Shown here: positions 13,558 to 41,061 of the stretch, piece after piece | Layout of the letters: each line of letters begins with the position of its first letter | How positions within the stretch are numbered: the first letter of the stretch is position 1 | Source: Macrostomum hystrix | Lineage: Eukaryota > Animalia > Platyhelminthes | Length of the DNA stretch: 64,000 nucleotides | Assembly: GCA_950097015.1 (NCBI GenBank) | Contig: CATNEN010000001.1 | Location: 1,612,001-1,676,000 of the forward strand | Reading direction: 5' to 3' | Made by a program: the position numbers and the translations under genes | The notes under the pieces: model-generated | What the model was told of the DNA's origin: nothing | The model's database searches: none | Seen by the model: the letters and a program-made list of their open reading frames with translations, nothing else

Positions 13558-15364
13558 TGTAACTTTGCTGTTTCTGAATGGGACTGAAAAAAGGTTTGGG
13601 TTTGAATTTCGCACAATTTCGCATAATTTGAAACTAATTTTTTTGCTTACTAGTGACACTAGAATGAATCTATATTTTGCTGTTATGTTAATGTTTAAGT
13701 GTGTTTTCGAGTTTCCTTCTTAAAATGTAAATATTTGACATGAAATATATCACATATATCAATTTTTAGAAAATAAAAAATATGCTAGCCAATATAGGAA
13801 GTAAATAATGTACAAAAATAAAAATTAAATATTCAACTTATAATGCGATCAAAGATTTACTCATGCAGAGTACTGCTTTAGCTACTGACTAATACTCAAT
13901 AGGTTTGAATTAGGTATGATATAATAACATATGTACATATATAATAGAGAATATACAATAACATATTGTACAAAAAAGCTTGAAACTTGTCATTTGGGCC
14001 CCTTGCCAAATCTTTAGGCTCACGATATACTATAACAGAATTAATTGTTCGACATAATTATTAGCTGCATGGAAGCACAAATGTATAAGAGGCTCATGTC
14101 ATGTCATATGAATAAATTAATTTCAAGAATAAATGAAAGATTTCACTGTCTTTTGTATTATACGAAATCTGAGTCAAGTTCACTTTACCTGGGATCAGTT
14201 GTTTTTTTTTTAATTGGGTTCGGAATCCATTCATATACTAGATAAAGGTTATGATCCTGTAATGGTCTTAACATAGAACAATAAAGCAAAAAACTTCTCA
14301 GTTAATTACTTAAGTGAACCTTTTCTGCCAAAAAAGTGCAGCTTTTCCAGAGTTTTTAATATCAGCGATGGCAATCTAGCTTTTAACTATCGATGTCGGA
14401 TTACGATAACAGCTAAAAACAAAACAATAGGACTTAGTAGGACTTTTTGTAAAACAAACATTTAATTAATGATTGAAGAAACAATCTGTTCGTGGAAACA
14501 GGTGCACTTCAAATATTGTCTACGAGTTTAGTCAAACAAATATTTTCTGATTGATTTTCACACGTTAAGCGTATTGTTAGGTCAATCTAAAATGCAGAAA
14601 AATATGCAAAATAAGTCACAATCTTGAGCTTTTCTTTCTAAGATTTCGAATCATTATTCAGTTCTTTTTCGAAACGATGTTTAAATACACACACAACTCA
14701 ATAAGTCTCAATTGGATGAATGTTCAGGTTTTGACTGGAACAGTACTAGTCACTTTTGGTTCACAAATTCCCCTTTTACGTCCTGCATTATCGGCAGGAC
14801 GAAGTTTACGCTTACGTATAGATAACTTATGCCGAAGCGAGAGTGAAACATCGTTTGAAATTAATATGGCTTACGTATGTGTACATTTAGAATTATAGAC
14901 AGTGACTGTTCAAACGGTTTACACAAAGCCCAAAGCCACTTCAACACATAATTTGATCTTAAGGATTGCCGTGAATGTGTAGGGAAAGCACGGGATTCAG
15001 CCAACGAAAGTTTTTCGAACGAACTGCGGTGTACATCTAGCGGTTCTCGTTATCTAGAATTGTATTAAATTTCTACATTACATTTTTATATAAAAACCTT
15101 ACAACACGCAGTCCTGTGCTGCTGTGCTTATCTGGGGGCACTAATTTGCGCAGTACAATGCAAGTTATAGCTGTGCCGTTGCTTATTTATACTGATCATA
15201 ATAAATTCAATTCAAGCCAGTTCATTAGTTTGACTTAAGTTATTTCACTCACAGTCTGTTTAAAAAAGAAAGTTTTATTTTAATTTATTCTGCATGATTC
15301 ATTTAAATAGTCAATTTTGGCATTTAAACTGATCTGCTTTGATATACTGATTGATCAGTGAAAA

Positions 15365-19568: not shown

Positions 19569-19574
19569 CTCCGA

Positions 19575-21462
19575 AAATAGGATCTTCATTGAGAATGGGA
19601 TCTTCATTGAGAATGGGATCTTCATTAAGAATGGGATCTTCATTGAGAATGGGATCTTCATTAAGAATAGGATCTTCATTGAGAATGGGATCTTCATTGA
19701 GAATGGGATCTTCATTGAGAATGGGATCTTCATTGAGAATGGGATCTTCATTGAGAATGGGATCTTCATTGAGAATGGGATCTTCATTGAGAATGGGATC
19801 TTCATTGAGAATGGGATCTTCATTGAGAATGGGATCTTCATTGAGAATGGGATCTTCATTGAGAATGGGATCTTCATTGAGAATGGGATATTCATTGAGA
19901 ATGGGATCTTCATTGAGAATGGGATCTTCATTGAGAATGGGATCTTCATTGAGAATACCAAAATTCATTGAGAATGTTCATTGAAAATTCATTGATTCAT
20001 TGAAAATTCATTGAAATTCATTGGGATCTTCATTGAGAATGGGATCTTCATTGAGAATGGGATCTTTATTGAGAATGGGATCTTCATTGAGAATAGGAGC
20101 TTCATTGAGAATGGGATCTTCATTGAGAATGGGATCTTCATTGAGAATGGGATCTTCATTGAGAATGGGATCTTCATTGAGAATGGGATCTTCATTGAGA
20201 ATGGGATCTTCATTGAGAATGGGATCTTCATTGAGAATTGGATCTTCATTGAGAATGGGATCTTCATTGAGAATGGGATCTTCATTGAGAATGGGATCTT
20301 CATTGAGAATGGGATCTTCATTGAGAATGGGATCTTCATTGAGAATGGGATCTTCATTGAGAATGGGATCTTCATTGAGAATGGGATCTTCATTGAGAAT
20401 GGGATCTTCATTGAGAATGGGATCTTCATTGAGAATGGGATCTTCATTGAGAATGGGATCTTCATTGAGAATGGGATCTTCATTGAGAATGGGATCTTCA
20501 TTGAGAATGGGATCTTCATTGAGAATGGGATCTTCATTGAGAATGGGATCTTCATTGAGAATGGGATCTTCATTGAGAATGGGATCTTCATTGAGAATGG
20601 GATCTTCATTCAGAATGGGATCTTCATTGAGAATGGGATCTTCATTGAGAATGGGATCTTCATTGAGAATGGGATCTTCATTGAGAATGGGATCTTCATT
20701 GAGAATGGGATCTTCATTGAGAATGGGATCTTCATTGAGAATTGGATCTTCATTGAGAATGGGATCTTCATTGAGAATGGGATCTTCATTGAGAATGGGA
20801 TCTTCATTGAGAATGGGATCTTCATTGAGAATGGGATCTTCATTGAGAATGGGATCTTCATTGAGAATGGGATCTTCATTGAGAATGGGATCTTCATTGA
20901 GAATGGGATCTTCATTGAGAATGGGATCTTCATTGAGAATGGGATCTTCATTGAGAATGGGATTTTCATTGAGAATGGGATCTTCATTGAGAATGGGATC
21001 TTCATTGAGAATGGGATCTTCATTGAGAATGGGATCTTCATTGAGAATGGGATCTTCATTGAGAATGGGATCTTCATTGAGAATGGGATCTTCATTGAGA
21101 ATGGGATCTTCATTCAGAATGGGATCTTCATTGAGAATGGGATCTTCATTGAGAATGGGATCTTCATTGAGAAGAGGATCTTCATTGAGAATGGGATCTT
21201 CATTGAGAATAGGATCTTCATTGAGAATGGGATCTTCATTGAGAATGGGATCTTCATTGAGAATGGGATCTTCATTGAGAATGGGATCTTCATTGAGAAT
21301 GGGATCTTCATTCAGAATGGGATCTTCATTGAGAATGGGATCTTCATTGAGAATGGGATCTTCATTGAGAATGGGATCTTCATTGAGAATGGGATCTTCA
21401 TTGAGAATAGGATCTTCATTGAGAATAGGATCTTCATTGAGGATGGGATCTTCATTGAGAAT
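19575..21462. repeat. 18-bp minisatellite array A (GAGAATGGGATCTTCATT)
   Basis: Starts a few bases after the MFS stop codon; source of the MKIPFS/IENGIF/RMGSSL ORFs. Confidence 0.98.
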
Positions 21463-22263
21463 ATGATAAGCAGTTATTGCTTGATTTTGAATTAAAATTA
21501 TACCTTATTATAAAATATCAATTCCTAAAATTGATGTTCAAATATTTCAAATTGGTAAAAATTGGTATGGGTGTGACGGACACACAATACTAATTTCGAT
21601 AAAATAGCTCTACATTACAGTAAATGGCATCAATTATTAAAGTTTTGATGAATTGAGAATATATAAATATTTGTAAATCGGAATTCTTGATATAAATAAA
21701 TAAATAAATATATATATATTCTCAATACATATATCGCATTGTTTCATATAATTGTTTTTATGAGCTCATTTCTAAAGACTTTGTTTGTAGTTTATGTTTA
21801 TTAATTTGAATATGCTATTTATTAATTATTTATTCCAATTATTAAAAGGTAGCAAAGTAACTAAAATAAAAATACATAACCACCATTTTTTGTGACGAGC
21901 CACCAAAGTTGCATCTCTTTGCAATAAACGCTCATACTGAGAACATGTGCTCTTTAAAACTTCGTCGACTTAAAAGATTAACTTTCAAAATGGTGCGATG
22001 ACGTGCTGGCGGTCACGCGTAGAACGCGCGTAATAATGCGCGATAATTTACTCGTGTACGAATTGCGTACTAATAAACGCATTTTACGAGCGTCACCAAT
22101 TGGGTAAAAAACGCGAGTATTACATGTGTTTCAGCTACGTAAAAACAACACGCGTACATGCATTCGGCAGTTAAATGCGTTTTATGTGCATGATCAGAGA
22201 TTGGGGTTGATTGGATCAGACCTTTTCCCGAATACAGGTGGATCTGTTTCACTGGATTGAGGG

Positions 22264-22298
22264 CCGATTAAGTGAGCAATTAATCTCCAGAGTATAAA
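22264..22298 (+). promoter_or_regulatory. Putative core promoter of ILP copy 1: GATTAA-N8-TTAATC inverted element plus TATAAA (22293-22298)
   Basis: Conserved at the same position in all three ILP copies (TATAAA 28590, TATATA 35781), ~85-110 bp upstream of the exon-1 donor. Function inferred. Confidence 0.5.
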
Positions 22299-22376
22299 TT
22301 ATACTGACTTTTGAAGTGCTTTTTAACACACTCCCTTTCTGTTTTCAAGGCCAGTCTGTTAGACCTCTGCGTTGAA

Positions 22377-23823
22377 ATGTAAGTTCAATAGTTTATGGAC
22401 TATTTGGCAGAATTGCATTGCGCCGTGACAAATTTTGTATCGATGAAGGCTCCCTGAAGTTTCAGGCTTCCTAAAGTTTCAGGCTTCCTGAAGTTTCAGG
22501 CTTCCTGAAGTTTCAGGCTTCCTGAAGTTTCAGGTTCCCTGAAGCCAGGTAACTTGGTAAACGACACAAATTGTTATAGTTATAATTGATTAAAAAATCG
22601 CACGCAATCTTCAGTACTCTGCCTGCGGCCTCACCCAGCAAGAATAAGTAGTTTAGAATCCCTTTCAATCCATTGTTATCGAAGGTCATCGGATCCATCG
22701 TGCAAGCGCAGCTTGACCTGGCTCACAACCAGTGTTGTCCTCATCCTGATGCTGATGACGCCAAGAACTTCGACGGTCGTAGGCGCCGCAACTAGCGGCA
22801 GTTTTAATCCGGTTTTGATAAGGCGTCAGCCATCATATCATGTCTGCTCATTTGGCCTGGTGAACAGGTACAAGTTGCTCTGCAGCTCGAGGTTTCTTGA
22901 ACTGTTCAAAGAATTTTGCACCAGGTACTGCCACTTCTATCGCCAGCAACCCGAATACATCCAGACTCCTAGAGGTGAGACGATTTTTCACCGCTGTCTC
23001 CTATCGATCAACAGAAAAAATCTTGCTTTTCAGAAGCTTACCCGCTTGACAAAGGCACGTGATTTTCTCGTTGACAACTCACAAAAGTGGTGACTAAATT
23101 ATGCACCACAATACCAGAAATGTTACTTCCACACTGGAAAAAAACTTTACTACCCCATTAGAAACACCAATCCCACACTAAAAAGTCAGATCCAACACTA
23201 AATCCCACACCAAATCAGAAACATCACTCCCCAATCAGAGACGTCACTAGTACTACCAAACCAGAAACGTCACTACACCATCAGAAACGTCAGTACCAAA
23301 TCAAAATTGTCCCTATCGAATCAGCTACGTCAAAATCCAATCAGAAACGTCACTTCTCGATCAGAGATGTCACTATACCTCACCAGAAACGACGTCACTA
23401 CCCAATCATATACGTCACTACCACACCAGAAACGACGTCACATTAACCACACCAGAAACATCACTACCACACCAGAAACATCACTACCACACCAGAAACG
23501 ACGTCACAACCACACCAGAAACATCACTACCACACCAGAAACGTCACTATCCAATCAGAAACGTCACTATCCAATCTTAAACGTCACTACCACACGATAA
23601 ACGTCACTACCACACGATAAACGTCACTACCACACCAGAAACGTCACTACCCAGTCAGAAATGTCACTGCCCAATAAGAAACTGAACGAAATTCCGTGTC
23701 AAACTATTCAATTTCACAGATCGAAGAAAGTCTAAAATTGACGATGTTGACGGACTGTTATGTACTTGCTGCGCTAAAAAATGCGACATACGCACCTTGT
23801 TGTCATTCTGCCCTTGTACCTGA
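22377..23823 (+). CDS. Insulin-like peptide precursor, copy 1 (131 aa). Coding exons 22377-22378 (AT), 22685-22974, 23720-23823
   Basis: Spliced product MSSDPSCKRSLTWLTTSVVLILMLMTPRTSTVVGAATSGSFNPVLIRRQPSYHVCSFGLVNRYKLLCSSRFLELFKEFCTRYCHFYRQQPEYIQTPRDRRKSKIDDVDGLLCTCCAKKCDIRTLLSFCPCT*. Signal-like N-terminus, B-chain C-x11-C, RxRR site, A-chain CC-x3-C-x8-C, and a phase-1 intron between B and A. Confidence 0.88.
22453..22545. repeat. 17-bp quasi-palindromic repeat (CCTGAAGTTTCAGGCTT) in ILP intron 1; also at ~28785-28920 and ~35965-36215
   Basis: Tandem units; CCTGAA/TTCAGG arms are complementary. Confidence 0.85.
23210..23680. repeat. 21-bp degenerate minisatellite (CCAGAAACGTCACTACCACAC) in ILP intron 2; also at ~29910-30160 and ~37360-37590
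   Basis: Tandem units, copy number differing between paralogues. Confidence 0.88.
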
Positions 23824-24193
23824 TTCTGTCCCGGCTACAAACAACGGTTTAATTCCAGTGATCGGACAACTGAAGATATCGGAAGAATTATTGACTATAT
23901 TAAATATTGAAACAAAGTTAAGATCAGTAAAACAACTAAACGAAAATAATGTTTGGAACTTCCCAATTAGTTCTACGATATCAGAATGAAAAGCAACAAA
24001 AAAGAAATTCATTGCTTGATAATTCTTTGCTTTCGTTTTTGTTTATTTTTCATCGATAAAATATCAAACAATTATATTCAGTACTAAGCTTCAAAAAAAC
24101 TTCGTGGGCCGCTGCCTAAAGGTGCAGCAGGTGGAATCCCCTGGTTACGTTCTGCTGCTAGTCTTATGGCAATTAATAAGAAAAAATGTACCT

Positions 24194-24263
24194 CCGGTGA
24201 GGCGGATTTGAACCACCGACCTAAGGATCGATGCACAATTTCAGTCCACAGCCTCTACCAACT
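24194..24263 (-). pseudogene. tRNA-Tyr pseudogene, 5'-truncated at the duplication junction
   Basis: Matches the 3' half of the tRNA-Tyr genes (GAGGCGGATTTGAACCACCGACCTAAGGAT). Anticodon arm is damaged and the match ends at TACCAACT. Confidence 0.8.
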
Positions 24264-24514
24264 CATCGTCCTATCATTTCTTTGAATTCTTTGTAAATCC
24301 GAAAACGTTATAAGAATTAGACTAATTTTGAGAAATATAGCAAATATTTTTAACTGGAAATCAAATGCTTGTTTATTTTGATTGAGTCCTTGATAAGGTG
24401 GACCTTGCAGCGAATAAATAAAATCAGGAGCTACATACTGTCACACGAATCTAGACTTTTTACTTAAAGGTTGAATGCTTAACAACTACCCCTAATTCAT
24501 AGCTCCATACTTAA

Positions 24515-26856
24515 ATGAGAACGGGATCTTCATTGAGAATGGGATCTTCATTGAGAACGGGATCTTCATTGAGAATGGGATCTTCATTGAGAATGGGATC
24601 TTCATTGAGAACGGGATCTTCATTGAGAATGGGATCTTCATTGAGAATGGGATCTTCATTGAGAACGGGATCTTCATTGAGAATGGGATCTTCATTGAGA
24701 ATGGGATCTTCATTGAGAATGGGATCTTCATTGAGAATGGGATCTTCATTGAGAATGGGATCTTCATTGAGAATGGGATCTTCATTGAGAATGGGATCTT
24801 CATTGAGAATGGGATCTTCATTGAGAATGGGATCTTCATTGAGAATGGGATCTTCATTGAGAATGGGATCTTCATTGAGAATGGGATCTTCATTGAGAAT
24901 GGGATCTTCATTGAGAATGGGATCTTCATTGAGAATGGGATCTTCATTGAGAATGGGATCTTCATTCAGAATGGGATCTTCATTGAGAATGGGATCTTCA
25001 TTGAGAATGGGATCTTCATTGAGAAGAGGATCTTCATTGAGAATGGGATCTTCATTGAGAATAGGATCTTCATTGAGAATGGGATCTTCATTGAGAATGG
25101 GATCTTAATTGAGAACGGGATCTTCATTGAGAATGGGATCTTCATTGAGAATGGGATCTTCATTCAGAATGGGATCTTCATTGAGAATGGGATCTTCATT
25201 GAGAATGGGATCTTCATTGAGAATGGGATCTTCATTGAGAATGGGATCTTCATTGAGAATAGGATCTTCATTGAGAATAGGATCTTAATTGAGAACGGGA
25301 TATTCATTGAGAATGGGATCTTCATTGAGAATGGGATCTTCATTGAGAACGGGATCTTCATTGAGAATGGGATCTTCATTGAGAATGGGATCTTCATTGA
25401 GAATGGGATCTTCATTGAGAATGGGATCTTCATTGAGAATGGGATCTTCATTGAGAATGGGATCTTCATTGAGAATGGGATCTTCATTGAGAATGAGATC
25501 TTAATTGAGAACGGGATATTCATTGAGAATGGGATCTTCATTGAGAATGGGATCTTCATTGAGAACAGGATCTTCATTGAGAATGGGATCTTCATTGAGA
25601 ATGGGATCTTCATTGAGAATGGGATCTTCATTGAGAATGGGATCTTCATTGAGAATGGGATCTTCATTGAGAATGGGATATTCATTGAGAATGGGATCTT
25701 CATTGAGAATGGGATCTTCATTGAGAATAGGATCTTCATTGAGAATGGGATCTTCATTGAGAACGGGATCTTCATTGAGAATAGGATCTTCATTGAGAAT
25801 GGGATCTTCATTGAGAATAGGATCTTCATTGAGAATGGGATCTTCATTGAGAACGGGATCTGAGAATGGGATCTTCATTGAGAATGGGATCTTCATTGAG
25901 AATGGGATCTTCATTGAGAATGGGATCTTCATTGAGAATGGGATCTTCATTGAGAACGGGATCTTCATTGAGAATGGGATCTTCATTGAGAATGGGATCT
26001 TCATTGAGAACGGGATCTTCATTGAGAATGGGATCTTCATTGAGAATGGGATCTTCATTGAGAACGGGATCTTCATTGAGAATGGGATCTTCATTGAGAA
26101 TGGGATCTTCATTGAGAATGGGATCTTCATTGAGAATGGGATCTTCATTGAGAATGGGATCTTCATTGAGAATGGGATCTTCATTGAGAATGGGATCTTC
26201 ATTGAGAATGGGATCTTCATTGAGAATGGGATCTTCATTGAGAATGGGATCTTCATTGAGAATGGGATCTTCATTGAGAATGGGATCTTCATTGAGAATG
26301 GGATCTTCATTGAGAATGGGATCTTCATTGAGAATGGGATCTTCATTGAGAATGGGATCTTCATTCAGAATGGGATCTTCATTGAGAATGGGATCTTCAT
26401 TGAGAATGGGATCTTCATTGAGAAGAGGATCTTCATTGAGAATGGGATCTTCATTGAGAATAGGATCTTCATTGAGAATGGGATCTTCATTGAGAATGGG
26501 ATCTTAATTGAGAACGGGATCTTCATTGAGAATGGGATCTTCATTGAGAATGGGATCTTCATTGAGAATGGGATCTTCATTGAGAATGGGATCTTCATTG
26601 AGAACGGGATCTTCATTGAGAATGGGATCTTCATTGAGAATGGGATCTTCATTGAGAATGGGATCTTCATTGAGAATGGGATCTTCATTGATAATGGGAT
26701 CTTCATTGAGAATGGGATCTTCATTGAGAATCGGATCTGAGAATGGGATCTTCATTGAGAATGGGATCTAAGAATCGGATCTGAGAATGGGATCTTCATT
26801 GATAATGGGATCTTCATTGAGAATGGGATCTTCATTGAGAATTGGATCTGAGAATC
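24515..26856. repeat. 18-bp minisatellite array B (GAGAATGGGATCTTCATT)
   Basis: Tandem units, with occasional 13-bp deletion units that shift the ORF frames. Confidence 0.98.
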
Positions 26857-26864
26857 GGAGCTCC

Positions 26865-26977
26865 CAAGCCGTAAAGCCTTCTCACCGTGACTGCGCCCCA
26901 AATGAATGTGGCCTCGCCGCGGAATCGAGCTCAGGGACCTTGGTACGAGAGGCAAGCGCGTTAGACATTCTGCCACT
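26865..26977 (-). mobile_element. SINE family A 5' head fragment
   Basis: Reverse complement GTGGCAGAATGTCTAACGCGCTTGCCTCTCG...GCTCGATTCCGCGGCGAGGCC matches the family A head. Confidence 0.7.
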
Positions 26978-28699
26978 CAACCCCTGGATGTTTTGCCATA
27001 GACTAATTGATGTTGGAACCATGGAAATGACAGTTTTTTTCTAGAAGAGATCAGATCTGAAATTCTGCTAAGAATCTCGACGCATTCAAACACTGCAAGG
27101 TTTTCTGTGTGGGTGGATGTTTTCTTAAAAAAGCGGCACTTTGACGCAAAACCAAACTGACTGTGTCAGCTTTCTGATTAATTTTCTAAGACGGAGACAG
27201 AGAAGGCCCAGTTGACTGACAGCCTAGACCTGCATGGGCTTGCTTGTTGCCATAGAGTAGGCGTTGCTGCAAATTAAAATCGGAATCAAATATTCAATCA
27301 GTGATTTCTGAAATATTCTTCCAAATCCGCATTTTCGTCTCCTAGTTAATTTTTTAGTCTGCTCCCAATCGTGTACAGGCTAAACTGATGCATTGCAGTT
27401 GCTGCTGTGGAGCTGGTTGTCATTTACTTGCTAGCGAGCAATTATTTCTAGTTAATTAATTAAATACTTAAAAAGATCAATTCTAAAAAATGATGCATAA
27501 ATATGTCTTTACATAATTAGTAAGGACTTTTTCTAATTAATTTATCACAACGGACTGCAGCTTATTGTTATAAAAATTGGTATGGATGGATAAATGACGG
27601 ACAAAATACTAATTTCATTAACATAGCTATACATGACAATAAATAGCATTAATTAAGTTATTTATGATAAAATAACTTTATGGACTTGAAAGCGCTACTT
27701 TTCAACAAATGTAACAATTGCAAAAATTCAAAAATTAAACTTTATGCAGTGTATTTAAAATTGTAGAGCTGCAAAGCTGCAAGAAAGTACAAGTATATCT
27801 ACAAAGCAGAATATCTAACTTTGAAACTTTACAGCAATACTGCTAAGTCGTAATAATCTTTGTCATTTGTAATCTTCTGGTTAATAGTTATATATTTATA
27901 TATTTATATATTTAAATATTTATATATTTATATACAGTAATACTATAGTATGTATGTATAGCATTACTGCATTCGTATCGCACTGTTACACAATATATTT
28001 TTGTGAGCTCATTTTTAAAGATTTTGCTTGTAGTTTATGTGTCATTCATTTATACATCCTGAATAATAATTAATTAATTATTTATTCCTAATCACAAGGT
28101 TGCAAACTAACAAAATAAAAACCATAACCACCATGCACTTTTATATTTGATTATGACGAGCCACCAAATGTGTAATTCTTTGCAATAAACGCTCATAATG
28201 AGAACTATGTGCTCTTTAAAACTTCCTCGACTAACAGATTAACTTTCAAAATGGTGCGATGACGTGCTCGCGGTCACGCGTAGAACGTGCGTAAAAATGC
28301 GCGTTAATTAACGCATGTACGAATTAACACGAGTACGTTGTAATACACGAATTTTACGCGCGTATGACAACTAAAAATACACGCGCGTCACAAATTGAGT
28401 AAAACAACGCGAGTATTACACGTGTTACAGCTACGTAAAACCAACACGCGGTTATTTACTCGGCAGTTACACTCGTTCTACCCGCATGATCTGAGATTGT
28501 GGTTGATTGGATCAGACCTATTCCCGGAATACAGGTGGATCTGTTTCACTGGATTGGGGGCCGATTAAGTGAGCAATTAATCTCCGGGGTATAAACTATA
28601 CTGACTTTTGAAGAGCATTTTTAACACACTCCCTTTCTGTTTCAATGCCAGTCTGTTAAATCTCTTCGTTGAAACGGATACACTCGGTAGTGTGCTGAA

Positions 28700-30304
28700 A
28701 TGTAAGTTAAAAAGATAATGAACTTTTTTAGCAGAAACGCATTGCGCCTCGATAAAATTTCTATAGCTGAATAGAAATTCAGCTTCAGGCTTCCTGAAGT
28801 TTCAGGCCCCTGAAGTTTCAGGCTTCCTGAAGTTTCCGGCTCCCTGAAGTCTTGAAATCCCTGAAGTTTCAGGCTTCCTGAAGTTTTAAGCTCCCTGAAC
28901 TTTCAGCCTCCATGAAGTTTTTCACCCGAGTTTATCTTGAAAATTGTCAGAAAATCGTTTCATCTGGTGTACTTTGAACGTATAGTTTCGTAATTCGTTT
29001 TTAGAAGAAAAAATATTAATATTTTCTAAGAAATCACGGTGGCAACAATCGCGCTACAAGCGTAACAAAACCTACCCCTTCAGGAAACTCCCATTCAGGA
29101 ACCTCCCCTTCAGGATTCTCCCCTTCAGGAACCTCTCCCTTAAAATTATTTAACTACACCTGCCCCAACTGGACCTGATCCGACAGTACAGTCGCACCTA
29201 TTGCGCGGCGCATCTGAAGGCTGCGTACGGCTATTCAGTCCATGGACTGTGGGGACGACAACACCCACCCTCAATTAAACCAGCTAATGCTGGTGTCCAT
29301 TTAACAGCTGGCTGAACTGAAGCAAAGCAGAAAAAAAGTAACTTGCTAAACGACACAAATTGGTAAAGTTATGATTGATACATATTTTCTAAATCTTCAA
29401 GAAAATCCACTTCCAATAAAAAAACCCACGCACTTCAGAATCCCTTTCAATCCATTGTTATCGAAGGTCACCGAACCCGTCGTGCAAGCGCAGCTTGACC
29501 TGGCTCACAACCAGTTTCGTCCTCATCCTGATGCTGATGGCACCAAGAACTTCGACGGTCGTAGGCGCCGCAACTAGCGGCACTTTTGATCCGGCTTCGA
29601 TAGTGCGCCAGCCGTCATATCATCGCTGCTCATTTGGCCCGGTGAACAAGAACGAGGTCACCTGCGACTCGAGGTTGATTCAACTGTTTACGAAATTTTG
29701 CGCCAGGTACTGCCACTTCTATCGCCAGCTACACCAAAACATCCAGACTCCTAGAGGTGAGACGATTTTTCACCACTGTCTCCTATCGACACAAAAAATC
29801 TTGCTTTTCAGAAGCTTACGCACCACAATACCAGAATCGCTAATTCCACACTGGAAAATAATTTACTACCCCATTAGAAACACAAATCCCACACAAAAAA
29901 GTCATTACCAAAACAGAAATATCACTACCCAATCAGAGACGTCACTACCCAATCAGAGACGTCACTACCACACAAGAAACGTCACTACCACACCAGAAAC
30001 GTCACTACACCATTAGAAACGTCATTACCCAATCAAAATTGTCCCTATAAAATCAGATACGTCACTATCCAATCGGAAATGTCACTACCACACCAGAAAC
30101 GACGTCACTACCCAATCAGAAACGTCACTACCACACCAGAATCGTCACTACCAAATCAGAAACTGAACGAAAATCCAAATTAAACGATTCAATTTCACAG
30201 TTCGAAGAAGCTATGAATTTGACAATGGTGACGGACTATTCTGCACTTGCTGCGCTAAAAAATGTAACATGCGCACCTTGTTGTCATTCTGCCCGTGTAC
30301 CTGA
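28700..30304 (+). CDS. Insulin-like peptide precursor, copy 2 (131 aa). Coding exons 28700-28701, 29467-29756, 30201-30304
   Basis: MSPNPSCKRSLTWLTTSFVLILMLMAPRTSTVVGAATSGTFDPASIVRQPSYHRCSFGPVNKNEVTCDSRLIQLFTKFCARYCHFYRQLHQNIQTPRVRRSYEFDNGDGLFCTCCAKKCNMRTLLSFCPCT*. Same exon sizes, splice sites and Cys pattern as copy 1. Confidence 0.88.
29151..29320 (-). mobile_element. SINE family B 3' fragment in ILP copy 2 intron 1
   Basis: GCGCATCTGAAGGCTGCGTAC...CAGTCCATGGACTGTGGGG...CATTTAACAGCTGG is the reverse complement of the body of 8391-8678. Absent from copies 1 and 3. Confidence 0.75.
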
Positions 30305-30586
30305 TTCTGTCCCGGCTACAAACAACGGTTTAATTCCACTGATCGGACAACTGAAGATATCGGCAAAATTATTGACTATATTAAATATTGAAACAAAGTT
30401 AAGATCAGTAAAACAACTAAACGAAAATAATGTTTGGAACTTCCCAATTAGTTCTACGATATCAGAATGAAAAGCAACAATAAATAAATTCAGTGCTTGA
30501 TAATTCTTTGCTTTCGTTTTTGTTTCTTTTTTATCGATAAAATATCAAACAATTATATTCAGTACTAAGCTTCAGAAAATCTGAAG

Positions 30587-30660
30587 CCGGTGAGGCGGAT
30601 TTGAACCACCGACCTAAGTATCGCTGCACATTTTCAGTCTACAGTCCTCCTCTACCAACT
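30587..30660 (-). pseudogene. tRNA-Tyr pseudogene, 5'-truncated
   Basis: Retains the CTGTAG anticodon and intron but has a 2-nt D-arm deletion and lacks the 5' acceptor strand. Confidence 0.8.
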
Positions 30661-31331
30661 CATCGTTCTATCATTCTCACCTTCTCATCGATCTACTCAA
30701 ACATTCTCATCGTACTCATGGATCTCATTAATCGACTCAAACGTGCTCAATGAAAACGGGATCTTCATTGAGAATAGAATTGCAATCGAGTTTGGGATTT
30801 CAATCAAGATTCGGGATCTTAATAGAGAATGGGTTTCTATTCGAGAATGGGCTTCTAAAACAGAATCGGATTTTTTCGAAAATGGGATTTTAATGGAGAA
30901 TACCCAGTCGCGGTACTGGTTTTCTAATGTCGCGCCTAGTTCGACCAACCGTGATGCTGATCATACAGCTCGCTGGATGCTTAATGGCAACCAGTTTATT
31001 AGCTGGCTGGGGCGATACCCATCTATCCGCAGCTTACATCGGTGTCGCCATGTACGGCCTGTGCATAGCAATGGTATTTCCAACTGGCATTACTTGGCTA
31101 GCTGAGAGGATAGATGTTACAGGTGCTTTAGCCAGCACCTGGTCTATTGGCACCTACATCGGTGCGAGCACCTACCCATTGTCAACTGGATTTCTGATTG
31201 GCGTTCAAAACACTGGCGCCATCGCTATGATGTACTTGGCTGCGGCTGTCTCGGCAGCCTACCTTCTGGTTGCCTTGGCAATGATGCTGGCGGCTAGAGG
31301 GATCAAACATCAGTTCTTGAATTCTTTGTAA
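30660..31331 (+). pseudogene. Partial duplicate of the MFS gene: pieces of introns 1 and 2 plus most of the last exon (30905-31331)
   Basis: ORF 30927-31331 translates identically to 19164-19568, but the splice acceptor and first ~40 nt of the exon are missing. Upstream sequence matches 15617-16050 and ~16670-16760. Confidence 0.85.
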
Positions 31332-31337
31332 CTCCGA

Positions 31338-34300
31338 AAATAGGATCTTCATTGAGAATGGGATCTTCTTAAAGAATGGGATCTTCATTGAGAATGGGAT
31401 CTTCATTGAGAATGGGATCTTCATTGAGAATGGGATCTTCATTGAGAATGGGATCTTCATTGAGAATGGGATCTTCATTGAGAATGGGATCTTCTTAAAG
31501 AATGGGATCTTCATTGAGAATGGGATCTTCATTGAGAATGGGATCTTCATTGAGAATGGGATCTTCATTGAGAATGGGATCTTCATTGAGAATGGGATCT
31601 TCATTGAGAATGGGATCTTCATTGAGAATGGGATCTTCATTGAGAATGGGATCTTCATTGATAATGGGATCTTCATTGAGAATGGGATCTTCATTGAGAA
31701 TGGGATCTTCATTGAGAATGGGATCTTCATTGAGAATGGGATCTTCATTGAGAATGGGATCTTCATTGAGAATGGGATCTTCATTGAGAATGGGATCTTC
31801 ATTGAGAATGAGATCTTCATTGAGAATGAGATCTTCATTGAGAATGGGATCTTCATTGAGAATGAGATCTTCATTGAGAATCGGATCTTCATTGAGAATG
31901 GGATCTTCATTGAGAATGGGATCTTCATTAAGAATGGGATCTTCATTGAGAATAGGATCTTCATTGAGAATGGGATCTTCATTAAGAATGGGATCTTCAT
32001 TGAGAATAGGATCTTCATTGAGAATGGGATCTTCATTGAGAATGGGATCTTCATTGAGAATGGGATATTCATTGAGAATGGGATCTTCATTGTGAATGGG
32101 ATCTTCATTGAGAATGGGATCTTCATTGAGAATGGGATCTTCATTGAGAATCGGATCTTCATTGAGAATCGGATCTGAGAATGGGATCTTCATTGAGAAT
32201 GGGATCTTCATTGAGAATGGGATCTTCATTGAGAATGGGATCTTCATTGAGAATGGGATCTTCATTGAGAATGGGATCTTCATTGAGAATGGGATCTTCA
32301 TTGAGAATGGGATCTTCATTGAGAATGGGATCTTCATTGAGAATAGGATCTTCATTGAGAATGAGATCTTCATTGAGAATGGGATCTTCATTAAGAATGG
32401 GATCTTCATTGAGAATGGGATCTTCATTGAGAATGGGATCTTCATTGAGAATGGGATCTTCATTGAGAATGGGATCTTCATTGAGAATGGGATCTTCATT
32501 AAGAATGGGATCTTCATTGAGAATGGGATCTTCATTGAGAATGGGATCTTCATTGAGAATGGGATCTTCATTGAGAATGGGATATTCATTGAGAATGGGA
32601 TCTTCATTGAGAATGGGATCTTCTTAAAGAATGGGATCTTCATTGAGAATGGGATCTTCATTGAGAATGGGATCTTCATTGAGAATGGGATCTTCATTAA
32701 GAATGGGATCTTCATTGAGAATGGGATCTTCATTAAGAATGGGATCTTCATTGAGAATAGGATCTTCATTGAGAATGGGATCTTCATTAAGAATGGGATC
32801 TTCATTGAGAATAGGATCTTCATTGAGAATGGGATCTTCATTGAGAATGGGATCTTCATTGAGAATGGGATATTCATTGAGAATGGGATCTTCATTGTGA
32901 ATGGGATCTTCATTGAGAATCGGATCTTCATTGAGAATCGGATCTTCATTGAGAATGGGATCTTCATTGAGAATGGGATCTTCATTGAGAATGGGATCTT
33001 CATTGAGAATGAGATCTTCATTGAGAATAGGATCTTCATTGAGAATGGGATCTTCATTGAGAATGGGATCTTCATTGAGAATGGGATCTTCATTGAGAAT
33101 GGGATCTTCATTGAGAATGGGATCTTCATTGAGAATGGGATCTTCATTGAGAATGGGATCTTCATTGAGAATGGGATCTTCATTGAGAATGGGATCTTCA
33201 TTGAGAATGGGATCTTCATTGAGAATGGGATCTTCATTGATAATGGGATCTTCATTGAGAATGGGATCTTCATTGAGAATGGGATATTCATTGAGAATGG
33301 GATATTCATTGAGAATGGGATCTTCATTGTGAATGGGATATTCATTGAGAATGGGATCTTCATTGATAATGGGATCTTCATTGAGAATGGGATCTTCATT
33401 GAGAATGGGATCTTCATTGAGAATGGGATATTCATTGAGAATGGGATCTTCATTGTGAATGGGATCTTCATTGAGAATCGGATCTTCATTGAGAATCGGA
33501 TCTTCATTGAGAATCGGATCTTCATTGAGAATCGGATCTTCATTGAGAATCGGATCTTCATTGAGAATCGGATCTTCATTGAGAATGGGATCTTCATTGA
33601 GAATGGGATCTTCATTGAGAATGGGATCTTCATTGAGAATGGGATCTTCATTAAGAATGGGATCTTCATTGAGAATCGGATCTTCATTGAGAATGAGATC
33701 TTCATTGAGAATGGGATCTTCATTGAGAATGGGATCTTCATTGAGAATGGGATCTTCATTGAGAATCGGATCTTCATTGAGAATGGGATCTTCATTGAGA
33801 ATGGGATCTTCATTGAGAATGGGATATTCATTCAGAATGGGATCTTCATTGAGAATCGGATCTTCATTGAGAATGGGATCTTCATTGAGAATGGGATCTT
33901 CATTGAGAATGGGATCTTCATTGAGAATCGGATCTTCATTGAGAATGGGATCTTCATTGAGAATGGGATCTTCATTGAGAATGGGATCTTCATTGAGAAT
34001 GGGATCTTCATTGAGAATGGGATATTCATTGAGAATGGGATCTTCATTGAGAATGGGATATTCATTGAGAATGGGATATTCATTGAGAATGGGATCTTCA
34101 TTGAGAATGGGATATTCATTGAGAATGGGATATTCATTGAGAATGGGATCTTCATTGAGAATGGGATATTCATTGAGAATGGGATCTTCATTGAGAATGG
34201 GATCTTCATTGAGAATGGGATCTTCATTGAGAATGGGATCTTCATTGAGAATGGGATCTTCATTGAGAATGGGATCTTCATTGAGAATGGGATCTTCATT

Positions 34301-35122
34301 GAGAATGGGATCTTCATTGAGAATGGGATCTTCATTGAGAATGGGATCTTCATTGAGAATGGGATCTTCATTAAGAATGGGATCTTCATTGAGAATCGGA
34401 TCTTCATTGAGAATGGGATCTTCATTGAGAATGGGATCTTCATTGAGAATGGGATCTTCATTAAGAATGGGATCTTCATTGAGAATGGGATCTTCATTGA
34501 GAATGGGATCTTCATTAAGAATGGGATCTTCATTGAGAATCGGATCTTCTTTGAGAATGGGATCTTCATTGAGAATGGGATCTTCATTGAGAATGGGATC
34601 TTCATTGAGAATGAGATCTTCATTGAGAATGGGATCTTCTTTGAGAATGGGATCTTCATTGAGAATGAGATCTTCATTGAGAATGGGATCTTCATTGAGA
34701 ATGGGATCTTCATTGAGAATGGGATCTTCATTGAGAATGGGATCTTCATTAAGAATGGGATCTTCTTTGAGAATGGGATCTTCATTGAGAATGGGATCTT
34801 CATTAAGAATGGGATCTTCATTGAGAATGAGATCTTCATTGAGAATGGGATCTTCATTGAGAATGGGATCTTCATTGAGAATGGGATCTTCATTGAGAAT
34901 GGGATCTTCATTGAGAATGGGATCTAAGAATCGGATCTGAGAATGGGATCTTCATTGAGAATGGGATATTCATTGAGAATGGGATCTTCATTGAGAATGG
35001 GATATTCATTGAGAATGGGATCTTCATTGAGAATGGGATATTCATTGAGAATGGGATCTTCATTGAGAATGGGATTTTCATTGAGAATGGGATCTTCATT
35101 GAGAATCGGATCTGAGAATGGG
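31338..35122. repeat. 18-bp minisatellite array C (GAGAATGGGATCTTCATT), ~3.8 kb
   Basis: Tandem units; source of the 778-aa and 943-aa pseudo-ORFs. Confidence 0.98.
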
Positions 35123-35128
35123 AGCTCC

Positions 35129-35241
35129 CAAGCCATAAAGCCTTCTCACCGTGACTGCGCCCCAAATGAATGTGGCCTCGCCGCGGAATCGAGCGCAGGG
35201 ACCTTGGTGCGAGAGGCAAGCGCGTTAGACATTCTGCCACT
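35129..35241 (-). mobile_element. SINE family A 5' head fragment (duplicate of 26865-26977)
   Basis: Near-identical to 26865-26977 together with the following ~340 bp. Confidence 0.7.
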
Positions 35242-35891
35242 CAACCCCTGGATGTTTTGCCATTGACTAACTGATGTTGGGACAATGGAAATGACAGTTT
35301 TTTCTAGAAGAGATCAGATCTGAAATTCTGCTAAGAATCTCGACGCATTCAAACACTGCAAGGTTTTCTGTGTGGGTGGATGTTTTCTTAAAAAAGCGGC
35401 ACTTTGACGCAAAACCAAACTGACTGTGTCAGCTTTCTGATTAATTTTCTAAGACGGAGACAGAGAAGGACCAGTTGACTGACAGCCTAGACCTGGGCTT
35501 GCTTGTTGCCATTGAGTAGGCGTTGCTGCAAATCAAAATCGGAATCAAATATTCAATCAGTGATTTCTGAAATATTCTTCCGAATTCGCAAATTCGGTCA
35601 AATTTCGTCGATCGAAATTTTTCTTGGTTTCGCTTTGCGATTCTGAATGCTGGCTCATTGCTGGCTCAATGTCGCTATGGCTCAAATTGCCTAGTGATTG
35701 GATCAGACCGTTTCCCAGAATCCAGGTGGATCTGTTTCACTGGATTGAGGGCAGATTAATTGTGCAATTAATCTCCAGGGTATATATTATACTGGCTTTT
35801 GAAGAGCTTTTTTAACACACTCCTCGTCTGTTGTCAAGGCCAGGCTGTTAAATCTCTTCGTTGAAACGGATACACTCGGTAGTGTGCTGAA

Positions 35892-37734
35892 ATGTAAGTT
35901 CAATGGTTGAAGGATTTTTTTGGCAGAATTGCATTGCGCCTTGACAAATTTTGTATCGCTGAAGGCTCCCTGAAGTGTCAGGCTCCTGAATTTTCAGGTT
36001 CCCTGAAGTCTCAAACTCCCTGAAGTTTCAGGCTCCCTGAAGTTTCAGCCTCCATGAAGTTTCAAGCTACCTGAAGTTTCAGGCTCCCTGAGGTTTCAAG
36101 CTACCTGAAGTTTCAGGCTCCCTGAGGTTTCAAGCTACCTGAAGTTTCAGGCTCCCTGAGGTTTCTGGCTCCCTGAAGTTTCAGGCTCCCTGAGGTTTCA
36201 GGCTCCCTGAAGTTTTTCACCCGAGTTTATCTTGAAAGTTCTCAGCATAAAAGTTTAATCCGGTGTACTTTGAGCGCATCACTTTCGTAATTAGTTTCTA
36301 GAAGAAAAAGATGAATATTTTCCAAGATATCTTGACGGCCAGAAATCGCGCTACAAACGTAACAAAACGAAACATTTTAGTGGCCCACAATTTTGATTTG
36401 ATTATCGATCGAAAACGTGCCAAAGTGGTCTCAATCAGATACAATAGCCAAGGCTGAAATCTATGCGGCGAGCACAGTTTGTGGACATTGGCGTGGGTGG
36501 AAATTCTGCCAGCTAAATTACCGCATGCGCCTACGCATATATATTCCCGGATGTAGAAGACGCCTGTGGTTTCTACTAAGCTCAATTCATTTATTTTCGC
36601 CTGAAAGTCACTCAGTGTGGCTACTAGCTAGACAGACAGCTCAGCAGAGCAGACCAGATAGTACTTGTAGCTCGATTGCGTCAATGAAAGTACAGTGAGT
36701 AGTTTAATTGATTACCTTTACGCCTCAATTAACCACGACACAGCGAATACACCAGGAGGCTTCAGTTACTTTTCAAGAACCCCCCCCTTCAGGAATCTCC
36801 CCTTCAACAAAAAAAAAATTACTGAAGTAAAAACTAGCTAAACGACACAAATTGTTATAATTGACTTTTGTTTTCTTACTCTTGAAGAAAATCCACTTCC
36901 TATTTAAAAAACCCACGCAATCTTCAGAATCCCTTTCAATCCATTGTTATCGAAGGTCATCGGATCCGTCGTGCAAGCGCAGCTTGACCTGGCTCACAAC
37001 CAGTTTCGTCCTCATCCTGATGCTGATGGCACCAAGAACTTCGACGGTCGTAGGCGCCGCAACTAGCGGCAGTTGTGATCCGGTTTCGATAATGCGTCAA
37101 ACGTCATATCATCGCTGCTCATTTGGCCCGGTGAGCAGGAACGATGGCATCTGCGGCTCGAGGTTGATTCAACTGTTCACGAAATTGTGCGTCAGGTACT
37201 GCTACTTCTATCGCCAGCTAGACCAAAACATCCAGACTCCTAGAGGTGAGAAGATTTTTCACCGCTGTATCGTATCACAATACCAGAAAAGATACGTCCA
37301 CACTGGAAAATAATTTACTAACCCATTAGAAACACCAATCCAACGCCAAAAAAGTAATTACCCAATCAGAAACATCACTACCCAATCAGAGACGTCACTA
37401 CCAAACCAGAAACTTCACTACCACACCAGAAACGTCACTACCACACCAGAAACGTCACTACCACACCAGAAACGTCACTACCACACCAGAAACGCCACTA
37501 CCACACCAGAAACGCCACTACCACACCAGAAACGTCACTACCCAGTCAGAAACGTAACTACCACACCAGAAACGTCACTACCAAATCAGAAACTGAACGA
37601 AAATCCAAATTAAACGATTCAATTTCACAGTTCGAAAAAACTATGAATTTGACAATGGTGACGGACTGTACTGCACTTGCTGCGCTAAAAAATGCGACAT
37701 ACGCACCTTGTTTACATTCTGCCCTTGTACCTGA
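35892..37734 (+). CDS. Insulin-like peptide precursor, copy 3 (131 aa). Coding exons 35892-35893, 36956-37245, 37631-37734
   Basis: MSSDPSCKRSLTWLTTSFVLILMLMAPRTSTVVGAATSGSCDPVSIMRQTSYHRCSFGPVSRNDGICGSRLIQLFTKLCVRYCYFYRQLDQNIQTPRVRKNYEFDNGDGLYCTCCAKKCDIRTLFTFCPCT*. CGSRLIQLFTKLC aligns with the insulin B-chain CGSHLVEALYLVC. Confidence 0.9.
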
Positions 37735-38125
37735 TTCTGTCCCGGCTACAAACAACGGTTTAATTCCACTGATCGGACAACTGAAGATATCGGAAGAATT
37801 ATTGACTATATTAAAAATTGAAACAAAGTTAAGATCAGTAAAACAACTAAACGAAAATAATGTTTGGAACTTCCCAATTAGTTCTTATACGATATCAGAA
37901 TGAAAAGCAACAAATAAAAAATTCATTGCTTGATAATTCTTTGCTTTCGTTTTTGTTTATTTTTCATCGATAAAATATCAAACAATTATATTCAGTACTA
38001 AGCTTCAGAAAAGCAAGACCAAATTCTAGAACTTCGTGGGCCGCTGCCTAAAGGTGCAGCAGGTGAATCCCCTGGTTACGTTCTGCTGCTATAGTCTTAT
38101 GGCAATTAATAAGAAAAAATGTACC

Positions 38126-38206
38126 TCCGGTGAGGCGGATTTGAACCACCGACCTAAGGATCGATGCACATTTTCAGTCCTCCTCTACCACCTGAGCTAT
38201 CGCCGG
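38126..38206 (-). pseudogene. tRNA-Tyr pseudogene, near full length
   Basis: Both ends present, but a 7-nt deletion removes the GTA anticodon, with a 2-nt D-arm deletion and an acceptor-stem mismatch. Confidence 0.8.
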
Positions 38207-38764
38207 ACCTGTCGGTTGTACTTTATTATATACCCGAGATCTGAAAACTAGTTTTACTCTTAAAGTAAAAAATAAAAATAAAAAGCTCAACAGCGACTAC
38301 TGACGCAGGAAAAAACATTGAGTAGTTTTAAAAGTAACATATATAATTTGCCCCTCATAATGTCTTTACATAAACACATAAGTGGATTTTAGCGACTGTG
38401 AGTTCAAAAAAATTCCTTAATTCAAATCGGCACCAATCTAATTGTTTCAACTCACTAGCTTCTGTAGGTAACACGGGCGATATACGAGTATAAACCTAAA
38501 TCAATATCTAAAGGAATCTAACCTATAAGAACAACAGCCTTATCTGCCTTATTTGATTTTCAAAGCTATTACACGATATTTCCTTTCTGTGGATAAGTTT
38601 CGTAATTTTTAGGATTTATTGTAAGCTGACCTTCTTTGAACGCTAAAATTTACGATTTAGTTATATTACAATTGCCTGTATTGTTGCTCAGGTTCAATTC
38701 TACTTATAGCTATCTAATAGCATCGACATAATATCGTTGATGTTTTGAAATGAGAAAAAATAAT

Positions 38765-38851
38765 TCCGGCGAGGCGGATTTGAACCACCGACCTAAGGAT
38801 TGCTGCGTCAATCTCTACAGTCCTCCGCTCTACCAACTGAGCTATCGCCGG
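38765..38851 (-). tRNA. tRNA-Tyr(GTA) with 14-nt intron
   Basis: CCGGCGATAGCTCAGTTGGTAGAGCGGAGGACTGTAG[agattgacgcagca]ATCCTTAGGTCGGTGGTTCAAATCCGCCTCGCCGGA. C1-G72/A73 Tyr identity; downstream oligo-T terminator. Confidence 0.95.
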
Positions 38852-39467
38852 ATAGTGAGAGATTGCACCTATCGGAAGTTATTTAATTAATTACCTTTAA
38901 TAGATTTTGAGGGGTCACGCAAAATAGTCTAAAGGTTTCACTAGCCTACTTTCACAAATAGAAAGTATGGGTTGTTTGACGCGAAAATTGCTGAATTTTG
39001 AAACTCTTTTTAATTAGCTACTCGTATATATAATGAAATGGGTTTACATCATAGGCTTTCTTGCTACAAAGACTTCAGATTATTTGTCGATTCTATTTTC
39101 TTTGACTTTGTCCAAAACTAAACTCAGTTATTTCTGGGGTAAAATTCCACAGGTACGTAAAATTAATTGACTACTAGGAGTTATCTGTTCAAGTAAAACA
39201 AATTTGTTTCTCGAAAAAATCCGCAAATATAAATTTAACCAGCCTCGGCCTAAATATACTGTATTATAATTTTTAGATTTCATAATATTTCATAATGTGC
39301 CTTTTGAGTCAAACTCTTTTTAACAGACCACTGGCGCAAGTAGAGAGTGTGGAGAGTGCAGAGCTGTATAAATTCGTTTTTATAAGTGTTATTATTCAAC
39401 AACTTTGAAGCTTTCTGGCACATATACAGGCGTCGTTTTAGGAGATATGCGACAATAAAAAAAAAAT

Positions 39468-39561
39468 TCCGGCGAGGCGGATTTGAACCACCGACCTAAG
39501 GATCGCTGCACTTTTACTTGCACTCTACAGTCCTCCGCTCTACCAACTGAGCTATCGCCGG
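39468..39561 (-). tRNA. tRNA-Tyr(GTA) with 21-nt intron
   Basis: Identical exons; intron agtgcaagtaaaagtgcagcg; oligo-T terminator. Confidence 0.95.
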
Positions 39562-39893
39562 ATTGGTGAAATGCAGGTCGTGACAAATGGTCAATAAAAT
39601 AAGTCGATCTTGAAGTGCACGGAAATTATTGAGCTCGTGAAACATTTTAGCCTATAGGCCCCACCCAGTCTATAGTATAATTTATGTGTATTCATAATTA
39701 TAGTCACGTGATTTAAATGTCATGGATAAGAAGGCTTAAGTGGCTGTGCTTAGCTCTCTCTCGCTTTAGCTTCGCTCAAGCTCTTAAAACGTCAAATAAA
39801 TTTATACAAAAGTGAAATATACATTCGCAGAAATCGATTAAAAATACATTCGAAGGTGAATTCTGGAAGAGTTTCATATAAAACAAAAATAAT

Positions 39894-39984
39894 TCCGGCG
39901 AGGCGGATTTGAACCACCGACCTAAGGATCGCTGCACTTTTACAATTCTACAGTCCTCCGCTCTACCAACTGAGCTATCGCCGG
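39894..39984 (-). tRNA. tRNA-Tyr(GTA) with 18-nt intron
   Basis: Identical exons; intron aattgtaaaagtgcagcg; oligo-T terminator. Confidence 0.95.
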
Positions 39985-41061
39985 ATCTTACTCTGTAAGG
40001 CGTGGTAGTGGTTAATTAAACTGACTAATATGTATTATTGATTTACTGACTGACAGGTCGTGTACATAGAATTCGTATTCGTATATATTAACAGGTACAT
40101 ATAGGTAAGTTTAATGGTAACCGCTGATACTCATATAAGACCATATGAATTGTTTTTTCAATATAATTATCGCAAACAATGTGTCGAACAATTTATATCG
40201 ATCTTAAAATCATGCTAGGCAGTCAGTCGATACTCATCGTTTCTTAAAAGAACGATTTATATTTATAATCGCTGGATGCCTCTACTTAAAGTAGGCCAAA
40301 CGCGTATTTCGCTACATTTCAAAACAGCTGGATCGAGTTTGCTTAGAAAGGAAAGACTACAGCATTAACCTATTTAGATTTAGCTTTTGCAAATGAACAA
40401 TATCGAAGTCAAGGCTAAGTCAGTATCAACACAATGTATGTAATACGAAATTCAACTGAAATAGATGTGAATAAATAGTGCATACAAGTTATAGAGAGTT
40501 CTGTTTACGGACAGGAAAAAAATAAACTCAAATTGAACTTGAACTTGAAATTCGAAATTCGAAATTGAAAATAAACGAGAAATTCGATTCATTTTGCCTC
40601 AAAACTTTTAATTGAGACTTTGATTGACTCTGCGAGTTTAAAACAAAATATAAGAAAAATATATAAGCTAATACACTCACACACGAACATCTGAAGTATG
40701 ATCTGAATTGTCAATTGTCAGTGCATGAACGACTCAAATTGCTGCATTTCATAGCAAAGAAAGAAGAGAAATTATTCATGCAAAAATGTACAGAAAACTG
40801 GCAACTTTCCTTCAACTAGCTAGTCAGGAAAATTTACCTGAGAAAACTCAGAAAACTAAGAAAGAAAACTTAAATCAATATAAATGAGCACTGCTCTTGT
40901 CATTCTATGTATTAAAAATCACTCGAACCCGTGCTACCGAGACTGACGGCGATGTTACACACTAACTGACACCCAGGTGCAAATCAAAAATTAATTTTAT
41001 AGGAATTACGTTGCTGCTTGGACGGATATTAGCGCATAACATACTGTTGAGAGTATCGTTT

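Follow-up and report, generated by a model that had tools for sequence, protein, structure and literature searches.

The stretch of DNA analysed here, 64,000 nt of Macrostomum hystrix contig CATNEN010000001.1 (assembly GCA_950097015.1, positions 1,612,001 to 1,676,000 of the forward strand; the window), carries three insulin-like genes in tandem on the + strand. Each has three exons separated by GT-AG introns and a coding sequence of 396 nt (131 residues) free of stops and frameshifts, and in all three copies intron 1 (phase 2) cuts the start codon and intron 2 (phase 1) cuts codon 98 after its first base, in the linker. Transcripts were sought among assembled contigs from runs X1-X8 (eight of the nine listed runs). 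In copy 1, a block homologous across all three copies holds the promoter and exon 1 (22208-22378), the exon being 5' untranslated region (UTR) except for its last two bases, which begin the ATG. Exon 2 of this copy (22685-22974 in the gene model) is predicted to encode the signal to about 22787, the pro-region to 22826, the B region at 22827-22946 and then the linker, these limits, like all signal and cleavage limits given here, being predictions from hydropathy and basic residues only. Exon 3 (23720-23823), whose spliced joint was found in X5, X2 and X4, holds the linker end with an R-x-R-R site, the A region and the stop, and is followed by a 3'UTR block (23824-24098) that is 97-98% identical among the copies. 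Beside the exon 1 donor, at 22355-22378, 24 nt present in copies 2 and 3 are missing from copy 1, which nevertheless retains the split start codon.

Copy 2 begins with its promoter and exon 1 at 28504-28701, and loose contig ends in X3 and X4 join an exon 1 of copy 2 or 3 to exon 2. Its exon 2 (29467-29756) is matched by pieces with no differences in X2, X3 and X4, its exon 3 (30201-30304) is reached by a GT..AG joint that skips 444 nt, and its 3'UTR block was placed by sequence comparison at 30305-30579. In copy 3 the promoter and exon 1 (35695-35893) are supported by a loose contig end in X7, and an alternative first exon lies within intron 1 (36590-36694, the 5' limit being approximate), as indicated by loose contig ends in X6 (105 nt) and X8 (95 nt); this exon has its own in-frame ATG at 36684, and its GT donor and frame were checked. 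Exon 2 (36956-37245), matched by copy-3-type contigs of X2, X3, X6, X7 and X8, encodes an extra unpaired Cys41 in the predicted pro-region, exon 3 (37631-37734 in the gene model) carries the linker site as R-x-R-K, and the 3'UTR block has a continuation in common with copy 1 (37735-38193), with 3 mismatches in 161 positions past the first 275 nt. A fourth copy was not found in the 64-kb window by tblastn and a six-frame motif scan. The region at 47480-47584 gave a weak tblastn match (E=0.025) and has no A-chain motif, and a motif-scan match at 44629, beyond the three copies, lies on the antisense strand of another open reading frame (ORF).

All three copies are transcribed and spliced. The possibility raised in a preliminary description of this DNA, that the copies are untranscribed, was thus found not to apply to any of the three. 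The contigs show neither absence nor expression level, and the copy types named for each run are those among the pieces listed. Within this scope, spliced pieces of all three copy types were found in X2 and X3, pieces of copies 1 and 2 in X4, copy-3-type contigs only in X6, X7 and X8, and a copy-1-like spliced transcript in X5 (organism B). Runs X2-X4, labelled 'DNA?', were treated as RNA because there was no depth over intron 2 and GT..AG joints were present; X1 covers introns, behaves as DNA with three exon-2 variants at similar depth, and may be the window's own source. The second first exon of copy 3 is used in X6 and X8, and X7, of the same study, has the standard exon 1. Runs X6-X8, from one study, gave only copy-3-type pieces versus two or three types in X2-X4, from another; this difference could reflect strain copy number, tissue or assembly, and was not used as evidence. 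With their intact frames, spliced transcripts and constrained residues the three copies are functional genes, and pseudogene and haplotig readings were ruled out by the intact frames, the splicing of all copies and the differing flanks.

Judged by Cys spacing and the linker intron, the triplet is a set of insulin-like peptide (ILP) genes. Ten Cys are invariant across the copies (residues 55, 67, 79, 83, 112, 114, 115, 119, 128 and 130), six of which (67, 79, 114, 115, 119 and 128) form the insulin frame C-x11-C ... CC-x3-C-x8-C in 3 of 3 copies, a spacing that arose by chance in 76 of 200,000 shuffles. The phase-1 intron in the linker, or C-region, is described as common to all insulin genes (PMC8286064). 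The four extra Cys stand at B-5, B23, A4 and A22, and five disulfides per precursor are predicted. Under neutral change the survival of all ten Cys would have a probability of 0.0036. The preliminary description was borne out in its statement that all framework Cys are retained (ten of ten in the three copies) and that B8 varies, with Ser in copy 1, Asp in copy 2 and Gly in copy 3. Gly A1, Leu A2, Leu A16, Phe A19 and the aromatic residues at B25-B26 are invariant, and B8, B11-B13, B16-B18, B24 and A3 are variable; B11, B12 and A3 nevertheless remain hydrophobic, and B24 is His, His and Tyr. Several of the variable positions correspond to receptor contacts in insulin, for which site-1 residues are listed as A1, A2, A3, A19, B8, B11, B12 and B24 (PMC12796670). 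In the precursors the N-terminal signal region is marked by hydropathy only, with a maximum of 3.2 around residues 14-26, Arg48-Gln49 is present in all copies as the predicted pro-region cut, and the basic site at 97-100 is R-x-R-R in copies 1 and 2 and R-x-R-K in copy 3, the former fitting the furin consensus as given in PMC8286064. When separate exons were scanned against Pfam, one of six matched Insulin PF00049 (copy 1 exon 3, E=0.024, 16.1 bits, cut-off 23) and one of six matched Ins_beta PF03488 (copy 3 exon 2, E=0.11, 13 bits, cut-off 21), together with three further weak, unrelated matches.

In the preliminary description a hypervariable mature peptide was set against a near-invariant signal and 3'UTR, and this contrast was taken as a signature of diversifying selection. 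The underlying counts were reproduced exactly, copies 1 and 2 showing 4 differences in 39 residues (1-39), 23 in 58 residues (40-97) and 3 in the first 170 nt past the stop. Residues 40-97 do differ strongly, but the stretch also spans the pro-region (to Arg48) and part of the linker (89-100), and is thus not the mature peptide alone. By region, identity among the copies is 89-94% in the signal, 62-69% in the pro-region, 57-75% in the B region, 50-83% in the linker and 71-81% in the A region, and what was called hypervariable amounts to 57-75% identity in the B region versus 89-94% in the signal. For the signal itself the ratio of nonsynonymous to synonymous rates (dN/dS) is 0.39-0.46, and its 95% range takes in 1. 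No indels separate the coding sequences of the copies, whereas the introns carry many gaps.

Selection was examined with GY94 codon models (own implementation) on a three-leaf tree. Pairwise NG86 estimates of dN/dS for residues 40-97 were 1.98, 2.94 and 1.57 (Fisher P 0.088, 0.051 and 0.345), and for codons 36-131 with shared branch lengths the value was 1.97-2.11 (P 0.029 and 0.015), a level reached by 3 of 173 null simulations. With own branch lengths the same codons gave 1.92-2.03 (P 0.068, 0.045 and 0.047), the A core 0.55-0.61 and the signal the value given above. The M8a/M8 comparison gave P of 0.017 and 0.045, and naive empirical Bayes (NEB) site lists flagged every variable site and were uninformative. 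On the copy 1 branch dN/dS was 3.6-3.7 versus 1.2-1.3 on the others (P ~0.02), and copy 1 holds 30 of 52 lineage-unique nonsynonymous changes versus 13 of 57 noncoding ones (P=0.0004), its own contrast of nonsynonymous and synonymous changes being weaker (P 0.03-0.08). The X5 contig differs from copy 1 by 5 nonsynonymous and 0 synonymous changes, which is not significant (P=0.27); with a depth of 7.7, this contig may be chimeric. The evidence for positive selection, which would act within a constrained Cys frame and chiefly on copy 1, is borderline, and the claim of selection is plausible but not established. Of the diversifying selection proposed earlier, a post-signal dN/dS of about 1.4-2.1 survives at that borderline level, but one intron alignment brings the value to about 1.0 and the excess is mainly that of copy 1.

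The 3'UTR cannot serve as the baseline for such a comparison, as had been supposed, because it is unusually similar relative to the introns: it differs by 2-3% between copies (9, 5 and 9 mismatches of 275) and is an outlier beside introns that differ by 10-16% (60/371, 38/294 and 59/474, P 1e-5 or less; 30, 24 and 32 of 240 in strict columns). In a mosaic test by label permutation, in which the odd-one-out copy was scored per block, that copy changed from block to block beyond chance (0 of 20,000 permutations; once one cluster had been collapsed, 72 of 20,000). A copy 2 transcript in X4 carries the copy 3 base at two positions, and that of X5 resembles copy 1 in exon 2 but copy 3 near the stop; alleles, ancestral states or chimeric assembly could also account for such mixtures. 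Identity of 97-99% is likewise seen in other blocks of the cluster, outside the UTR. It is likely that the 3'UTR was homogenised by gene conversion in a mosaic array, and the alternative named in the preliminary description, that UTR identity reflects a conversion tract, is probably correct in view of the UTR and intron rates and the mosaic pattern; purifying selection on the 3'UTR is a possible but less likely alternative. In either case the 3'UTR exaggerates the contrast between signal and peptide.

Taken together, our best reading is one of modest adaptive divergence of copy 1 among duplicated internal ligands. We tentatively propose, from the sequences, that the triplet encodes internal ligands of the worm's own insulin receptor, of which copy 1 may have come under positive selection after duplication and whose 3'UTRs were probably converted. 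The precursor would lose its signal peptide, would then be cut after Arg48 to release a short pro-region and at the basic site 97-100, and would adopt an insulin fold carrying two additional disulfides, predicted to pair 55-112 and 83-130. The retention of Gly A1, Leu A2, Phe A19 and the aromatic B25-B26 points to a ligand of a receptor tyrosine kinase (RTK). Changes at B8, B12, B13, B16, B17 and A3 might retune affinity or receptor choice, by which the copies are proposed to differ in potency, and the second first exon might let copy 3 differ in regulation. As precedents, planarian ilp-1 is reported from the central nervous system and testes (PMC2953531), and multinsulins and Drosophila ILPs are described as internal ILPs that multiply and diverge (PMC8286064).

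Several points weigh against this proposal. It depends on three sequences and on many partitions tested at uncorrected P values, and copy 1 was singled out for its test post hoc. Neither M0, with a dN/dS of 1.47-1.60 (P 0.22 and 0.12), nor the M1a/M2a comparison (P 0.058 and 0.13) was significant. On its own, the predicted mature part (49-131) gave 1.74-1.89 (P 0.095-0.15). With introns as added neutral sites the value was 1.44-1.78 when unambiguous columns only were used (P 0.007-0.068), but leaving out the poorly alignable intron block favours conserved intron sequence, and with full intron blocks kept it fell to 0.96-1.06, a figure that includes a misaligned part of intron 1 and was retained as a lower bound. 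The copy 1 branch could, in addition, look long as a result of local conversion between copies 2 and 3. Furthermore, all Pfam matches are below the curated cut-off (the exons being scanned singly), and the hormone region of the precursors has no KR site, which does not match typical neuroendocrine processing as outlined in PMC8286064.

The full-block value is also what would be expected if constraint had simply been relaxed, with redundant duplicates in which the signal and Cys frame are held and the rest drifts near the neutral rate. Intron divergence as high as the exon's, which the preliminary description named as counting against its own reading, is partly observed: the introns show 10-16% difference and the post-signal nonsynonymous sites 10-19% (17%, 19% and 10% beside 16%, 13% and 12% for the introns). 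Relaxed constraint would also fit a 95% range for codons 36-131 that extends to about 1, the dN/dS of 1.2-1.3 on copies 2 and 3, and the relaxed selection reported as common in some Macrostomum lineages (PMC8662610). However, every codon-only model has a point estimate above 1, and for the average to be near or above 1 while ten Cys and the core never vary, some sites must evolve faster; the excess on copy 1 and the lack of coding indels or stops, set against the many intron gaps, point the same way. We regard relaxed constraint as unlikely, albeit the foremost of the alternatives to internal ligands.

The preliminary description inferred a possible action outside the animal, on mates or prey or in defence, and the sequences and contigs gave no direct support for it; ordinary families of hormones, too, expand and diverge (PMC8286064). 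It is also conceivable, and ranks next to relaxed constraint among the unlikely readings, that the peptides are seminal allohormones made in the prostate, passed to the partner and acting on its insulin receptor, where they would shift egg laying, growth or post-mating behaviour and would diverge by sexual conflict. A fuller version, which we consider doubtful, would make them five-disulfide insulins of the ejaculate, prostate paralogues under sexual-conflict selection that activate the partner's receptor, as a reproductive counterpart of cone-snail venom insulin. The conserved signal, fixed Cys and dN/dS near 2 resemble the pattern of cone-snail venom insulins (PMC5062327), and faster evolution of reproduction genes is reported in Macrostomum (PMC8662610). 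The prostate-limited transcripts of M. lignano number 76, of which 31 are given as having no BLAST match (PMC5977470), so a divergent insulin could sit there unannotated. A furin-type site instead of KR would suit a gland cell, and the cockroach is described as having a male-gland-specific ILP, a precedent for location, transfer being unproven (PMC12364350). Nonetheless, no occurrence of the word 'insulin' was found in the prostate screen (PMC5977470; text and 2 supplements), in 4 supplements of the positional RNA-seq paper (PMC4490696) or in 11 supplements of PMC7336406, although such negatives are weak, as these peptides match known families poorly and sequence files or figures may list genes unnamed. 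The selection signal is moreover modest and lies mostly on one branch rather than on all copies. Far less probable still is a role as prey-capture or defence peptides from head or skin glands, in the manner of cone snails. The general variation pattern would be compatible with it, and extra disulfides might stabilise an external peptide, but there is no sign of mimicry of another animal's insulin. To our knowledge, Macrostomum are mostly diatom grazers with no venom apparatus.

Related 18-bp minisatellite arrays lie upstream of copy 1 (19576-21462), copy 2 (24516-26849) and copy 3 (31339-35113), and it may be that the copies arose by unequal crossing-over between them. A further related array is present at 16616-17750, the arrays spanning 1.1-3.8 kb, and tandem repeat makes up about 22 kb of the 64-kb window. 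The segment 30901-31360 (+) is a 460-nt copy of 19138-19597, comprising the end of an upstream ORF and the array start, at 98.9% identity, which in sequence terms is a recent exchange within the cluster. Pieces of the upstream gene (ORFs at 15638-19568), which we take to be membrane-transporter-like, are duplicated between copies 2 and 3, at 91% identity in 30659-30751 and at 99% in 30901-31360. The copy 1 unit is closed by a degenerate tRNA-Tyr-like piece on the - strand (24175-24263, by sequence comparison), and similar pieces follow copies 2 and 3 (30574-30660 and 38108-38207). They appear to be degenerate parts of the intron-containing tRNA-Tyr genes found downstream, where tRNA genes at 38749-39986 (- strand) were called by ARAGORN as two Tyr and one near-identical copy as Asp; low-threshold ARAGORN calls were discarded as noise.

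Beyond the cluster, a multi-exon RFX transcription factor gene occupies 49135-56762 (+), its closest relative by identity being M. lignano BOX15_Mlig034263g2. One exon is 90% identical to this M. lignano protein, whereas a second M. lignano RFX, which comes next, reaches 73% and mollusc proteins about 70%; a barnacle protein has the top bit score through repeated matches, yet only 63% identity. Across the window exons the first M. lignano protein matches at 53-95%. Taken by themselves, these matches place the window probably in a Macrostomum other than M. lignano. On the - strand there are an uninterrupted ORF of 494 residues (43455-44939), presumably coiled-coil-rich, and one of 105 residues (42072-42389), which we take to be death-domain-like. 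Further ORFs lie at 12092-13719 (-) and 62592-63005 (+), and are presumably a NAPE-PLD-type enzyme of the metallo-beta-lactamase fold and an ALG14, respectively.

The ten-cysteine insulin triplet is real, expressed and apparently undescribed, since no paper describing Macrostomum insulin-like peptides was found among the papers listed, as judged on titles and abstract openings. It would add a predicted disulfide pattern to the flatworm insulins, and it offers three expressed candidates in a genus where RNA interference (RNAi), in situ hybridisation and mating assays are available. If the peptides are prostate products, mate manipulation via insulin signalling could be put to a direct test; a neural or gonadal origin would instead make them an ordinary duplication of hormones, together with a caution that a converted UTR inflates apparent hypervariability.

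Like the members of the insulin/IGF/relaxin superfamily, the triplet has the Cys spacing in B and A, the predicted order signal-B-linker-A and the phase-1 linker intron, as well as Gly A1, Leu A16 and aromatic residues at A19 and B25-B26 (positions as in PMC12796670). It departs from that superfamily (PF00049) in its four extra Cys, in a B8 that is not a fixed Gly and in the replacement of Gly B23 by Cys; only one dibasic site between the B and A regions is clear, and the Pfam score does not reach the cut-off. The Cys at A4 and in the B N-terminal arm presumably correspond to the extra pair of molluscan insulin-related peptides, and those at the B and A C-termini, we assume, to the extra pair of the C. 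elegans beta-type insulins. Each of these types has four disulfides, and the triplet would combine both pairs and have five, all pairings being predicted; the weak Ins_beta match (E=0.11) is a further likeness to the C. elegans beta-type. Orthologues of dilp7 have a conserved F-domain N-terminal to the B chain, and the triplet has an N-terminal B extension. This extension seems to lack the Trp-rich motifs. Flatworm ILPs, from the same phylum, are similar in their long B region and precursor length (129-152 residues in schistosomes; PMC5391603), but those of schistosomes are described as having six strictly conserved Cys, the A-chain pattern CCC-x2-C-x8-C and one gene per species named (PMC5391603), versus three tandem genes with ten Cys in the triplet. 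ILPs with ten Cys are already known, as in the locust aIGF (PMC8220825).

Cone-snail venom insulins resemble the triplet in having a conserved signal, variable B and A regions and fixed Cys, and their mean dN/dS is given as 2.30 (PMC5062327). They differ in that 15-17 sequences yielded a P of about 6e-13, venom-gland expression was proven, and mean B-chain identity is 43% with variation in length and Cys (PMC5062327), whereas the triplet comprises three sequences with P of 0.01-0.13, 57-75% identity and no indels. The asterozoan multinsulins, likewise variable ILPs with extra Cys, form clusters that expanded in a species-specific manner, are proposed to be RTK ligands and show possible exon mixing between copies (PMC8286064). 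According to the same source (PMC8286064) their genes comprise four coding exons and the peptides have KR sites and at most four disulfides, in contrast to the three exons, the hormone region without KR and the five predicted disulfides of the M. hystrix triplet.

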